Assembly (NCBI GenBank): GCA_026770705.1
Contig: JANJGN010000018.1
Span: 12,400,001-12,464,000, forward strand
Reading direction: 5' to 3'
DNA length: 64,000 nucleotides
Origin: Isurus oxyrinchus
Lineage: Eukaryota
Shown: piece after piece, positions 7,520-64,000 of the stretch
Layout of the letters: each line of letters starts with the position of its first letter
Position numbering within the stretch: the first letter of the stretch is position 1
Notes under the pieces: model-generated
Told to the model about the DNA's origin: nothing
The model's input: only the letters and a program-made list of their open reading frames with translations
Database searches by the model: none
Position numbers and translations under genes: made by a program

Positions 7520-7830
7520 GGGCAGAATCTTACCCTTATACCCTTATCCCAGTTCTGTTGAAGGGTCATGAGGACTCGAAATGTCAACTTTGTTCTTCTC
7601 CGCCAATGCTGCCAGACTTGCTGAGTTTTTGCAGGTAATTCTGTTTCTGGTTTAGAATCTTACCCTTGTCAGGCAGGGTTGGCGGGGGTGGTCAGGAAGC
7701 TGAATTAAGGCCTGCCCAGCGTGAAACATGAGTGGCAGCGCTCAGCGCTGCCTGTGCAGGCAGGGGGAGAAGGGCAAGCGTGAACTTTGCACTTTTTTTT
7801 ATTATATAACTCTTCATCTCCCTGAGAGAA
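7520..7830. mobile_element. Harbinger-type MITE left portion, interrupted by a Penelope fragment
   Basis: Begins GGGCAGAATCTT, the TIR motif of the other MITEs; the GC-rich body resumes at 7654. Confidence 0.55.
7551..7653 (+). mobile_element. Penelope-like pseudo-LTR fragment with hammerhead motif
   Basis: Near-identical to 37943-38040; flanked by the 14-bp duplication AGAATCTTACCCTT (7524-7537 and 7654-7667). Confidence 0.85.
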
Positions 7831-11527: not shown

Positions 11528-11661
11528 GTCACATATAGGCCAGACCAGTTAATGCTGAGAAGGTTTCTTTCCTGAACCAGTTGAATTTTTTGCCACAATC
11601 TTATAGCTCCATGCTAATTTTTGCTGGTTTCAGCTTTCTGTTTCCAACATTTAAATAAAGA

Positions 11662-12599
11662 AGATAAAAGCAAAAAAACTGCAGATGCTGGAAATCCAAA
11701 ACAAAAATAAAAATACCTGGAAAAACTCAGCAGGTCTGACAGCATTTGCGGAGAGGAACACAATTAATGTTTTGAGTCCGTATGACTCTTCAACAGAACT
11801 AAGGGAAAATAGAAGAGAGGTGAAATATAAGCTGGTTTAAGGGGGTGGTGAGACAAGTGGACCTGGATAGAGGGCCAGTGATAGGTGGTGACCGCTTTGC
11901 AGAACACCTTCAGTCTGTCCGCAAGCATGACCCAGACCTCCCTGTCGCTTGCCATTTCAACACTCCACCCAGCTCTCATGCCCACATGTCCGTCCTTGGC
12001 CTGCTGCAATGTTCCAGTGAAGCTCAACATAAACTGGAGGAACAGTACCTCATCTTCCGACTAGGCACTTTACAGCCTTCCAGACTGAATATTGAGTTCA
12101 ACAACTTTAGATCATGAACTCTCTCCTCCATCCCCACCCCCTTTCCGATCCCCCTTTTTTCCAATAATTTATATAGATTTTTCTTTTCCCACCTATTTCC
12201 ATTATTTTTAAATGTATTTCCATCCATTGTTTTATCTCTACCTTTTAGCCTATTTCGATCCCTTCCCCCCACCCCACCCCCACTAGGTCTATCTGTACCT
12301 TGCTCGTCCTGCTTTCTATCCTTAATGTCACCTATTATCACATTCCTTAGATAATATCACCACCGTCAACACCTCTTTGACCTTTTGTCTATGACATCAT
12401 TTGGTTATCTCCACCTATCACTGGCCCTCTATCCAACTCTACTTGTCCCACACCCCCTTAAACCAGCTTATATTTCACCTCTCTTCTATTTTTCCTTAAT
12501 TCTGTTGAAGAGTCATACGGACTCGAAACGTTAACTGTTCTCCGCTCCGCAGATGCTGTCAGATCTGCTGAGTTTTCCAGGTATTTTTGTTTTTGTTTT
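11662..12599 (+). mobile_element. Penelope-like element, 5'-truncated, with inverted pseudo-LTR and GIY-YIG C-terminal remnant
   Basis: 11889-12117 encodes DRFAEHL...VACHFN...KLEEQYLIFRLGTLQPSRLN; about 190-bp inverted arms at 11698-11888 and 12411-12599. Confidence 0.92.
12498..12536 (+). ncRNA. Minimal type I hammerhead-ribozyme-like motif in Penelope pseudo-LTR
   Basis: AATT-CTGTTGA-A-GAGTC(ATACG)GACTC-GAAAC-GTT-AACT; core position 6 is U instead of A. Confidence 0.6.
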
Positions 12600-37062: not shown

Positions 37063-37881
37063 TATGGAAACTGAGATGTGGGTGTGAGGCTTGCAGCAGT
37101 GTATGTGAGGATGATGTTGAACATCTGAGTGCTCGGCATGAATCCTGATTGCTAGAGATTGCTGACGCGTGAGTGATGGAGCTGTGGCTGGGTCATAGAG
37201 GTCCACAGTACAGAAAAAGGCCCTTCAGCCCATCGGGTCCACACCAGTCAAACAAGTACGAAACTATTCTAATCCCATTTTCCAGCACCAGGCCCACAGC
37301 CTTGTATGCCATGGCATCGCAAGTGCACATCCAAATACTTCTTAAATGTTGTGAGGATTTCTTCCTCTATCACCCTTTCAGGCAGTGAGTTCTAGGTTCC
37401 CACCACCCTCTGGGTGAAAAAATTCTTCCTCACATCCCCTCTAAATCTCCTGCCCCTTACCTTAAATCTGTGCCCCCTGGTTATTGATCCCTCCACAAAG
37501 GGGAAAAGTTCTTTTCTGTCTACCCTATCTATGCTCCTCATAATTTAAACACCTCAATCATGTCCCCCTCAATCTCCTCTGCTCCAAGGAAAATAATCCC
37601 AGTCTATCCAATCTCTCCTCATAACTAAAACTCCCCAGCCCAGGCACTCTCTCTGTGCAATCACATCCTTCCTATAATGCGGATTCCAGAACTGCACCCA
37701 ATACTCTAGCTGTGGCCTAACCAGCGTTTTATACAGTTCCAGCATAACCTCCCTGCTCTTATATTCTATGCCTTGGCTAATAAAGGCAAGTATCCCATAC
37801 GCCTTCTTAACCACCTTATCTACCTGTCCCGTTACCTTAAGGGACTGGTGGACATGCACATCAAGGTCCTTCTGAACCTCG

Positions 37882-38040
37882 AGATAAAAACAAAGAAAAC
37901 TGCGGATGCTGGAAATCCAAAACAAAAACAGAATTACCTGGAAGTTCTGTCGAAGGGTCATGAGGACTCGAAACGTCAACTCTTTTCTTCTCCGCCGATG
38001 CTGCCAGACCTGCTGAGTTTTTCCAGGTAATTCTGTTTTT
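37882..38040 (+). mobile_element. Short Penelope-like insertion (inverted arm + pseudo-LTR end)
   Basis: TSD CCTTCTGAACCTCG (37868-37881 and 38041-38054); inverted AAAAACAGAATTACCTGGAA / TTCCAGGTAATTCTGTTTTT. Confidence 0.9.
37943..37981 (+). ncRNA. Minimal type I hammerhead-ribozyme-like motif
   Basis: AGTT-CTGTCGA-A-GGGTC(ATGAG)GACTC-GAAAC-GTC-AACT: stem I AGTT/AACT, stem II, palindromic ACGT, GUC triplet. Confidence 0.65.
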
Positions 38041-40229
38041 CCTTCTGAACCTCGCTACTTCCCAGGGTTTTACCATTCATTGTGTATCCCGGGCCTTGTT
38101 TGTCCTGCCTAAGTGCATTACCTCACAACTATCCGGATTAATTTCCATTTACCACTGATTAGTCCATCTGACCAGCCCGCCTATATCCTCCTGTAATCTA
38201 AGGCTATCCTCCTTACTATTTACCAGCCCACCAATTTTCGTGTCATCCGCGAACTTACTGATCAACACTCCTACATTCAAGTCTAAATCATTTATCTGTA
38301 CCACAAACAGCAAGGGACCCAACACTGATCCCTGTGGAACCCTACTGGACACAGTCATCCAGTCACAAAAACACCCCTCGACCATCACCCTCTATTTCCT
38401 GCCACTCAGCCAATTCTGGATCCAATTTGCCAAATTGCCTTGGATCCCATGGGCTCTTACCTTCATTATCAGTCTCCCATGCGGAACCTTATCAAAAGCA
38501 TTGCTGAAGTCCAAGTAGACTACATCAAATGCATTGTCCTCATCTACACACCTGGTCACCTCTTTGAAAAATTCAATTAAATTGGTCAGACATGACCTCC
38601 CCTTAACAAAACCATGCATACTGTCATTGATTAATTCCTGTCTTTCCAAGTGTAGATTAATTCTCAGAATTGCTTCCAATAGTTTCCCTACCACTGAGGT
38701 TAGACTGACTGGCCTGTAGTTCCCTGGTTTAGCGCTTCTTGAATAACAGTACCACACTGGCTGTCCTCCAGTCCTCTGGCACCTCTCCTGTGGCCAGAGA
38801 GGTATTGAAAATTATTGCCAGTGCCCCTGCTATCTCCTCCCTTGCCTCACTCAACAGCCTGGGATACATTTCATCCGGGCCTGGAGATTCCTCTACTTTA
38901 AAGTATGCCAGACCACTTAGAACCTCCTCCCTTTCTAAGCTAATTTCTTTAATTATATCACAGTCCCTCTGCCTGATTTCCATACCCACGTCGTCCCTCT
39001 CACTTGTGAACACTGACACAAAGTATTAATTTAGAACCCTACCTACGTCTTGGGCTCCACACACAAATTACCACTATGGTCCTTAATGGGCCCTTCTCTT
39101 TCCCTAGTTATCCTCTTACTCTTAATGTACTTGTGAAATAACTTTGGATTTTCCTTTATTTTACCTGCCAATGTTTTTTCATGCCCCCTTTTTGCTCTCC
39201 TAATTTCCATTTTAAGTTCCCCCCCTACACATTCTATACTCCTCTAGGGCTTCCGCTGTTTTGAGCCCTCAGTATCTGCCATAAGCCTCCCTTTTCCTCT
39301 TTATCCAAACCTGTATATCCCTTAATATCCAGGATTCCCTGGATTTGTTGGTCCCACCCTTTGTTTTCACTGGAATATGTTGGCCCTGTACTCTCCCTAT
39401 TTCCTTCTGTTCTGACGCACTTTACCTAAAAATAGCTGCTCCCAGTCCACTCTGGCCAAATCATATCTGATCTTATTAAAATCTGCCTTCTCCCAATTTA
39501 GAACTCTGATTTCTGGCCCATCCTTGTCCTTTTCCAATAACAACCTTGAATCGCACAGAGTTATGATCACTATCTGCAAAATGCTCCCCCACTGACACCT
39601 CTACCACTTTCTGGCTTCATTCCCTAAATTTAAGTCCAGTACCGCTCCCCCCCCTCCCCCCCCCTCCCCCCCGCTCCCCTTGTAGGACTTTCTAAATACT
39701 GCCTTAAAAAGCTCTCCTGTATGCATTTTAAGAATTCCGCTCCCTCTAAACCTATCACACTATGACTTCTCTGAAATTCGCCTGCATGTCTGCTCTTCTA
39801 TTTCTCTCTGACTGTTTGGGGGCCTACAGTACACACCCAGTGATGTTTTTTAATTCTACCCATATGGCTTCATTTAAGGAGCCTTCTAAGATGTCATCCC
39901 TCCTTACTGCTGTAATTAATTCCTTGATCAATATTGCGATACTCCTTCCTGTTTTACCTCCTTCCCTGTCTTGCCTGAAGACCCTATTTCCTGGAATACT
40001 GAGCTGTCAATCCTGCCCCTCTCTCAACCATGTCTCTGTGACAGCAATGACAACATACTTCAATTTCTGTTAATTTGTGCCCTCAACTCATCTGCCTTAT
40101 TCGTCAGAATTGTTGCATTAAAATAAATACCATCCAATCTTGCCAAACTCCCTTGTGCCTTAACTGGCCTATATTTTCTATGCCTTAGAGATTCACTTGC
40201 TCTCTCTTCTAATTTTGGCTGTGCATCTC

Positions 40230-60830: not shown

Positions 60831-61223
60831 AAGTCAGTGCCAGCCTGAACCCCCATTAACAGACACCAGAAAAAGGGCTAAAGCTTCAAGGAAACATCAA
60901 AGCCACTCCCTTTCCTGCTTGGTTCCCTCTGAATGAATAGGGCCACAATGGAATGGGCATCCCAATTTCTTCTCGTCCTGTCCCCCAAAGTCCAGCCAGT
61001 CATTGTCCTGTTCAACTCGGATTCCCAATCCGTTTTTGCAATATTCAGGTTTTCATTTCCTGCCACCACACTGCCCACAAAGAGAAGGGTTATTATGCAG
61101 TAAAATGAATGTGCTGTGCATCCAGGTTGATTCTCTCTCTCTCTCTCTCCCCCACCCCACTCGTCTTATAATCTACATTGAAAACTAGCCGGCCAGCAAT
61201 GCAATCTGGGCCTCTGAAAGGTA

Positions 61224-64000
61224 GAACACTGTCACTATTCCTCTCCCTGGAACCCTGTCACCATTCCTCTCCCTGGAACCCTGTCACCATTCCTCTCCCT
61301 GGAACCCTGTCACCATTCCTCTTCCTGGAACCCTGTCACCATTCCTCTCCCTGGAACCACGTCACCATTCCTCTCCCTGGAACCCTGTCACCATTCCTCT
61401 CCCTGGAACCACGTCACCATTCCTCTCCCTGGAACCCTGTCACTATTGCTCTCCCTGGAACTGTGTCACTATTCCTCACCCTGGAACCCTGTCACTATTC
61501 CTCTCCCTGGAACTGTGTCACAATTCCTCTCCCTGGAACCCTATCACTATTCCTCTCCCTGGAACTGTGTCACTATTCCTCTTCCTGGAACCCTGTCACT
61601 ATTCCTCTTCCTGGAACCCTGTCACTGTTCCTCTCCCTGGAACCCTGTCACTATTCCTCTCCCTGGAACCCTGTCACTGTTCCTCTCCCTGGAACCCTGT
61701 CACTATTCCTCTCCCTGGAACCCTGTCACTGTTCCTCTCCCTGGAACCCTGTCACTGTTCATCCCCCTGGAACCCTGTCACTATTCCTCTCCCTGGAACT
61801 GTGTCACTATTCCTCTCCCTGGAACTGTGTCACTATTCCTCTCCCTGGAACCCTGTCACTATTCCCCTCCCTGGAACCCTGTCACTATTCCCCTCCCTGG
61901 AACCCTGTCACTATTCCTCTCCCTGGAACCCTGTCACTATTCCCCTCCCTGGAACCGTGTCACCATTCCTCTCCCTGGAACCCTGTCACTATTCCCCTCC
62001 CTGGAACCGTGTCACCATTCCCCTCCCTGGAACTGTGTAACTATTCCTCTTCCTGGAACCCTGTCACTATTCCCCTCCCTGGAACCCTGTCACTATTCCC
62101 CTCCCTGGAACCCTGTCACTATTCCCCTCCCTGGAACCCTGTCACTATTCCCCTCCCTGGAACCCTGTCACTATTCCTCTCCCTGGAACCCTGTCACTAT
62201 TCCCCTCCCTGTAACCCTGTCACTATTCTGCTTCCTGGAACCCTGTTACTATTCCTCTTCCTGGAACCCTGTCACTATTCCTCTTCCTGGAATCCTGTCA
62301 CTATTCCCCTCCCTGTAACCCTGTCACTATTCTGCTTCCTGGAAGCCTGTCACTATTCCTCTCCCTGGAACTGTGTCACTATTCCTCTCCCTGGAACCCT
62401 GTCACTGTTCCTCTCCCTGGAACCCTGTCATCATTCCTCTCCCTGGAACCCTGTCACTATTCCTCTCCCTGGAACCCTGTCACCATTCCTCTCCCTGGAA
62501 CCCTGTCACCATTCCTCTCCCTGGAACCACGTCACTATTCCTCTCCCTGGAACCCTGTCACCATTCCTCTCCCTGGAACCGCATCACCATTCCTCTCCCT
62601 GGAACCTGTCACTATTCCTCTCCCTGGAACCCTGTCACTATTCCTCTCCCTGGAACCCTGTCACTATTCCTCTCCCTGGAACCCTGTCACTATTCCTCTC
62701 CCTGGAACCCTGTCACCATTCCTCTCCCTGGAACCGCATCACCATTCCTCTCCCTGGAACCTGTCACTATTCCTCTCCCTGGAACCCTGTCACTATTCCT
62801 CTCCCTGGAACCCTGTCACTATTCCTCTCCCTGGAACCCTGTCACTATTCCTCTCCCTGGAACCCTGTCACTATTCCTCTCCCTGGAACCCTGTCACTAT
62901 TCCTCTCCCTGGAACCCTGTCACTATTCCTCTCCCTGGAACCCTGTCACTATTCCTCTCCCTGGAACCCTGTCACTATTCCCCTCCCTGGAACCCTGTCA
63001 CTATTCCTCTCCCTGGAACCGCATCACCATTCCTCTCCCTGGAACCCTGTCACTATTCCCCTCCCTGGAACCGTGTCACCATTCCCCTCCCTGGAACCGT
63101 GTCACCATTCCTCTCCCTGGAACCCTGTCACCATTCCTCTTCCTGGAACCCTGTCACCATTCCTCTTCCTGGAACCCTGTCACCATTCCTCTCCCTGGAA
63201 CCCTGTCACCATTCCTCTCCCTGGAACCCTGTCATCATTCCTCTCCCTGGAACCCTGTCACCATTCCTCTCCTGGAACCGCATCACCATTCCTCTCCCTG
63301 GAACCGTGTCACCATTCCTCCCCCTGGAACCCTGTCACCATTCCTCTTCCTGGAACCCTGTCACTATTCCTCTCCCTGGAACCCTGTCACTATTCCTCTC
63401 CCTGGAAACCTGTCACTATTCCTCACCCTGGAACCCTGTCACTATTCCTCTCCCTGGAACTGTGTCACAATTCCTCTCCCTGGAACCCTATCACTATTCC
63501 TCTCCCTGGAACTGTGTCACTATTCCTCTTCCTGGAACCCTGTCACTATTCCTCTTCCTGGAACCCTGTCACTGTTCCTCTCCCTGGAACCCTGTCACTA
63601 TTCCTCTCCCTGGAACCCTGTCACTGTTCCTCTCCCTGGAACCCTGTCACTATTCCCCTCCCTGGAACCCTGTCACTATTCCTCTCCCTGGAACTGTGTC
63701 ACTATTCTTCTTCCTGGAACCCTGTCACCATTCCTCTTCCTGGAACCCTGCCACTGTTCCTCTCCCTGGAACCCTGTCGCTGTTCCTCTCCCTGGAACCC
63801 TGTCACTGTTCATCCCCCTGGAACCCTGTCACTATTCCTCTCCCTGGAACTGTGTCACTATTCCTCTCCCTGGAACTGTGTCACTATTCCTCTCCCTGGA
63901 ACCCTGTCACTATTCCCCTCCCTGGAACCCTGTCACTATTCCCCTCCCTGGAACCCTGTCACTATTCCTCTCCCTGGAACCCTGTCACTATTCCCCTCCC
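61224..64000. repeat. 26-bp minisatellite (consensus CTGTCACTATTCCTCTCCCTGGAACC), about 106 units, continues past the window end
   Basis: Direct reading; the translation repeats every 26 aa, equal to 3 units. Confidence 0.98.

Follow-up and report, generated by a model that had tools for sequence, protein, structure and literature searches.

A hammerhead-like motif with U at core position 6 in a Penelope-like element of Isurus oxyrinchus

The DNA analysed here, a stretch of 64,000 nt from Isurus oxyrinchus (the window), contains at 37943..37981 a motif laid out as a minimal hammerhead ribozyme, with U at the core position expected to be A6. This raises the question of whether the element carrying the motif has multiplied with a core variant that works, with a crippled ribozyme or with a mere remnant. 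Minimal hammerheads are known from the pseudo-LTRs of Penelope-like elements, where an extra nucleotide follows A9 (PMC4209133). Their role is stated to be unclear in the account of PMC8557442, which considers them as possible passengers and describes Naiad elements that proliferate without canonical hammerheads.

Hammerhead-like motifs in the window

The motifs and the features around them are as follows.

7551..7656, plus strand: solo end repeat with hammerhead at 7551-7589 (core CUGUUGA) and a 14-bp target-site duplication at 7524 and 7654
11648..11842, minus strand: inverted end repeat with tail; hammerhead at 11762-11800 (core CUGUUGA, G12 changed to A)
11887..12599, plus strand: 5′-truncated element of an early U6 subfamily, with endonuclease C-terminus at 11890-12114, 3′ UTR and hammerhead at 12498-12536 (CUGUUGA)
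37867..37881 (left) and 38040-38054 (right), plus strand: 15-bp target-site duplication of the focal copy
37881..37943, minus strand: inverted piece of the same end repeat plus tail (unit positions 79-141), 100% identity over 63 nt
37943..38040, plus strand: forward end-repeat (pseudo-LTR) piece, whose first base coincides with the 5′ edge of the hammerhead
37943..37981, plus strand: focal hammerhead-like motif, minimal type I, core CUGUCGA with U6 at 37950; extra A at 37954, stem II at 37955-37969, GAAA at 37970-37973, predicted cut at 37977/37978
38056..38418, minus strand: decayed LINE reverse-transcriptase fragment (PQGSVLGP and FADD motifs), the target of the focal insertion

All four motifs lie where the first-pass annotation had placed them, and U is at position 6 in 4/4. 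It had also described hammerhead architecture for every one of them, which is accurate for the focal copy; the other three have partly decayed after insertion. In the focal motif, stem I (AGUU/AACU), stem II (GGGUC/GACUC), ACGU and GUC are in place and only A6 is missing. The copy at 7551 has AUGU instead of the palindrome ACGU, that at 12498 has a mismatch in stem I, and that at 11762 on the minus strand has AAAA instead of GAAA and the triplet AUU. The focal insertion is judged to be recent because over 99 nt it matches the end repeat of an intact element perfectly (100% identity) and because the 15-bp target duplication flanks it. It interrupts a LINE fragment that we take to belong to CR1/L2. 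Elsewhere in the window, a 26-bp satellite, repeated over 100 times with about 90% similarity between copies, begins at 61090 and reaches the window end at 64000.

The GAAA box and GUC of the focal copy occupy 37970-37977, and GAAA, U16.1 and an NUH triplet are the majority state in every subfamily. Stems I and II, G10.1-C11.1, the extra nucleotide after A9 and the palindromic ACGU are also present, with 95% of the cells at the nine base pairs able to pair. An Rfam scan of the window (E up to 10) returned 18 matches, hammerhead families being absent, and inspection together with a two-strand scan found neither a hammerhead on the other strand nor a shifted register that restores CUGANGA. Judged by its sequence, the motif is built like a minimal Penelope hammerhead and descended from one; as A6 is absent, we class it as a non-canonical variant.

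The closest published counterparts are the minimal hammerheads of metazoan Penelope-like pseudo-LTRs (Cervera and De la Pena 2014, PMC4209133). They share with the motif the position in the end repeat, a 4-bp stem I, the lack of stem III, the extra nucleotide between 9 and 10.1, G10.1-C11.1, the palindromic 15.2-16.2 and a presumed dimer. They differ at position 6: the only core variant found there was U3-A8, and the supplementary sequences examined have CUGANGA. Our literature searches turned up no natural A6U core, including the parts consulted of PMC6765202, PMC6155905, PMC11014351, PMC2377424 and bioRxiv 10.64898/2026.07.22.740005; Lunse et al. 2017, the likeliest place for one, and one supplement of PMC4209133 lie outside this scope. 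Nor did the literature yield a measurement of A6U activity in a minimal hammerhead.

The host element

The assignment of the host to the Penelope-like elements, made on first reading, is borne out by an endonuclease C-terminus, a reverse transcriptase, a GIY-YIG domain and pseudo-LTRs. Using a 200-residue stretch of the N-terminal part of a U6 element as query, we scored 150 of 21,396 candidates, many of them in 926-codon frames. Twenty loci were taken for this frame length; with a U6 query, an intact sister family with A6 could be missed. They contain 24 intact frames of 926 codons with a mean difference of 1.0%. The encoded protein matches RVT_1 with 32.7 bits (cut-off 29.6), with YIDD at 571, and has a GIY-YIG match that falls below the cut-off (E 0.0089), with YIGET at 842. 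Between the two domains is a CX4CxxC linker (CPRKRCNTC). The closest named protein relative is from a shark (67% identity).

The element unit is 3,326 nt long and is arranged both in tandem and inverted; it has two 3′ end points, most 3′ ends lying near unit positions 100-110 or 130-150. Tandem copies of more than one unit were found; they are compatible with both copying of circular RNA and strand transfer and were given no weight. A search by RVT_1 family yielded other retroelements, whose frames reach about 1,300 codons, and its results were set aside. Among these were 1,303-codon reverse-transcriptase frames with recurrent identical scores in arrays about 7.2 kb apart (G000:C2:61840771-61878254 and others), which suggests another young retroelement in tandem.

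By its features, the element is probably of the Neptune/Nematis kind. [quoted passage not shown] Canonical hammerheads are described there as universal, whereas the lineage reported here lost a core letter while active. Poseidon elements lack the Cys linker that is present here. The green anole Poseidon element PAc (PMC11167929) resembles our element in having an end-repeat hammerhead, two 3′ ends separated by a tail of 30-40 nt and an intact motif in inserted copies. In PAc, a working, protein-assisted ribozyme overlaps the start codon, whereas here the first in-frame AUG follows about 175 nt after the motif start.

U6 in the genome and in intact elements

Across the 4.98-Gb genome, the motif pattern matched 91,114 times with U6 and 6,013 times with any other letter at position 6; the patterns demand intact CpGs, so young copies are favoured in these counts. 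The reversed pattern gave 0 matches in the same genome, which argues against chance as the source of the motif. A looser A6 pattern had 6,686 matches. In an unbiased 664-kb sample anchored downstream of the motif, 24/47 copies fit references of the U6 stages and 23/47 those of the A6 stages. Within the 20 loci with intact frames, U6 was found in 43/43 hammerheads scored, a set in which one was counted twice through overlapping loci and one has a private G5 change.

These counts uphold the earlier proposal that U6 was present in the master elements, and the majority sequences of the young subfamilies are not CUGA. Decay after insertion, considered as a source of U6, is ruled out by the genome-wide count and by U6 in the intact elements. 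In the contigs of sequencing runs labelled organisms A, B and C, no other letter at position 6 reached 2% or more; older A6 copies align less readily in such data, and one label may denote the source species.

Origin and later history of U6

A tree was built without the motif from 58 of 80 copies with long flanks, the remaining 22 being near-identical young rows. Its shape is a ladder from A6A7 through A6U7 and U6U7 to U6C7. A clade of 41 rows (99/87) contains every U6 and C6 row but one, and this last row groups with two A6 rows at a sister node that is unresolved. A single A6 row lies within the youngest copies and reads as a back-mutation. Terminal branches are about 0.03-0.06 in the earliest U6 copies and 0-0.02 in the youngest. 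The sampled A6 copies are old, with terminal branches of mostly 0.04-0.25 (0.004 for the nested one). The change from A6 to U6 arose once, and many subfamilies amplified after it.

A side-lineage went on from U6 to C6. It has 1,220 copies, as compared with 69 for a T-to-C change at U16.1 on the same background, which is the one comparator used. This difference means that a C6 source element also transposed, and that position 6 behaves like a free site. An A6 side-branch (L077, L079, L083, L090 and L102) has GGGUC and GUC changes like those in the later U6 lineage, which point to either parallel change or recombination between subfamilies.

Constraint and predicted folding

Sequence constraint since U6 was assessed by setting the subfamily majority of 10 copies from the earliest U6 stage against that of 12 copies from the youngest. 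Only 1/31 structural positions changed (an A-U pair of stem II to G-U), and none of the other 11 core letters did. By comparison, changes were found at 4/7 free motif positions, 76/333 adjacent UTR positions and 25/150 third codon positions. The p values for structural positions are 0.002 against free positions, 0.01 against the UTR and 0.053 against third positions; for the core alone, p = 0.13. All of the changes in the motif after U6 would be tolerable to a working hammerhead (N7, loop II, A-U to G-U in stem II and GUU to GUC). Conserved blocks also occur elsewhere, as 18/302 overlapping 32-nt UTR windows have one difference or none. Covariation was two-sided in 0 and one-sided in 3 of the nine pairs, a result from 12 distinct rows of one lineage that is uninformative and does not refute the fold. 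The motif is probably still constrained, in a manner that fits catalytic and non-catalytic roles alike.

Isolated from its surroundings, the focal motif has a predicted stem II probability of 0.98. Within 110 nt of context, the median stem II pairing probability is 0.83-0.89 in the early U6 stages (n = 9, 14) but 0.04 and 0.20 in the two latest large ones (n = 9, 52), the predicted fall arising from possible pairing of the purine-rich 5′ strand with a U-rich tract after stem I. Stem II may thus be out-competed in the two latest large subfamilies. This prediction lends weak support to the crippled state of the ribozyme, since the A6 side-branch also scores low (0.01, n = 4). A per-position table drawn up alongside it was set aside, as the patterns that selected the copies bias it. 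At 10-20 nt upstream of the motif, the youngest subfamily carries a newly gained sequence that nearly repeats the 3′ strand of stem II plus GAA (GGACUCGAA; L029:1403-1421 and all youngest copies); in read-through RNA, this sequence could be a competitor for stem II.

Start points of inserted copies

In the unbiased sample, 7/24 U6-stage and 4/23 A6-stage copies start within -5 to +4 of the 5′ edge of the motif, in a mapping that undercounts inverted junctions. The first base of stem I is the start of many insertions of both A6 and U6 stages (37943 and 7551 in the window, and many other loci) and may mark the transcription start.

Few copies start near the predicted cut, where 215 matches were spread over five start positions with no clear spike, the detection rate being about 1 in 4 by design. 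A hand tally among the 100 matches listed gave 30 at +36, 11 at +35, 25 at +34, 16 at +33 and 18 at +32 or earlier. Of 30 loci inspected, 8 begin at +36 and 25 join element-derived sequence; one +36 start joins outside DNA. The older A6 family was likewise without a clear spike (by eye), so the lack of a cut footprint in inserted copies cannot tell U6 from A6. We infer from these starts that inserted copies derive from uncut RNA beginning at the 5′ edge of the motif, which is compatible with the cutting of other molecules. No GT..AG joint that would mark an intron at the motif was among the joints listed from four contig runs, contigs being unable to show absence. At the AAA/CGTT point of the hammerhead, older A6 copies frequently harbour a different repeat that has inverted ends (by eye, about 30 of 100 rows listed; L197-L204), and L203 displays both halves of an interrupted motif.

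Discussion

We favour, at a probability of roughly 55%, the reading that the motif is a crippled ribozyme in an active Penelope-like element, kept for a non-catalytic role. It builds on what was observed directly, namely the host element, the single origin of U6, the continued amplification, the constraint on the rest of the motif and the insertions that keep the motif whole. The master lineage would have changed A6 to U once and gone on transposing with most of its cleavage lost, as published mutagenesis of other hammerheads suggests. Copying would have been from uncut RNA with transcription starting at the 5′ edge of the motif, and the motif would have been retained at the RNA start as promoter sequence or as a fold bound by the protein of the element. 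Because the family went on multiplying once the core letter was lost, cutting is probably weak or not needed for transposition. A complete mutant scan (PMC9901934) reported low activity for every single change in the CUGA turn, and among the second mutations reported there none except a C3-G8 swap rescued such mutants. In one ribozyme, A6C lowered the rate in 0.3 mM Mg2+ from 0.3 to 3.55e-6 per min (PMC7151607). In the anole element, RNA reads ending at the cut were reported as none, and dead hammerhead mutants still inserted in vitro (PMC11167929).

It is possible, if rather unlikely, that U6 is instead a working core variant, whose dimer cleaves usefully in cells with the help of the element protein or Mn2+, slow cutting balancing processing against the supply of whole templates. 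The contrast of structural positions with free (1/31 against 4/7, p = 0.002) and UTR positions (76/333, p = 0.01) is in keeping with this, as is the occurrence of the GUU to GUC and A-U to G-U changes in an A6 side-branch too. In the anole element, cleavage by the hammerhead required protein (PMC11167929). A natural A6C ribozyme, that of phage Bcep176, is slow in Mg2+ and reaches 0.3 per min in Mn2+ (PMC3088659, PMC7151607). Bcep176 shares the natural loss of A6 with our element, which has a C6 side-lineage as well, but it is one phage RNA whose activity has been measured and is favoured by Mn2+, whereas here the loss is fixed across tens of thousands of animal retroelement copies. Weighing against a working variant, minimal hammerheads are weak even with an intact core (PMC4209133) and the CUGA mutants of PMC9901934 are near-dead. 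The largest bin of start points, +36 (30 of the 100 matches listed), would agree with cutting, but at least 8 of these 30 starts resemble microhomology joins to an inverted copy (by eye), the +34 bin holds 25, and only 1 of the 8 +36 starts in the 30 inspected loci joins non-element DNA. A bolder form of the idea, which we regard as doubtful, has the U-turn adenine dispensable, with U6 and C6 dimers cleaving in the presence of the retroelement protein and slower cutting giving the burst of tens of thousands of copies.

That the motif is a neutral, unconstrained remnant whose apparent conservation reflects its shortness seems improbable. The 18/302 equally conserved UTR windows, the comparison with ORF third positions (p = 0.053) and the absence of two-sided covariation would suit such a remnant, but structural and free positions differ within the same 39 nt (p = 0.002) and the U16.1 change is rare among copies. 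We give very little credence to the idea that A6U was favoured for translation, A6-U7-G8 being an upstream AUG, and that A6 partners in mixed dimers provide in trans whatever cutting is needed. The immediate ancestors did have CUGAUGA, which contains AUG, and about 6,700 A6 matches persist in the genome; against this, the lineage later acquired a new upstream AUG in loop II, and the sampled A6 copies are old.

For surveys of hammerheads, searches requiring CUGANGA overlook about 90,000 motifs in this one genome. The dated natural series from A6 through U6 to C6, in one lineage with intact copies, makes the role of the hammerhead in Penelope-like elements testable. If the core is dead, an autonomous element thrives without cleavage; if it is live, a textbook invariant of the hammerhead is broken.
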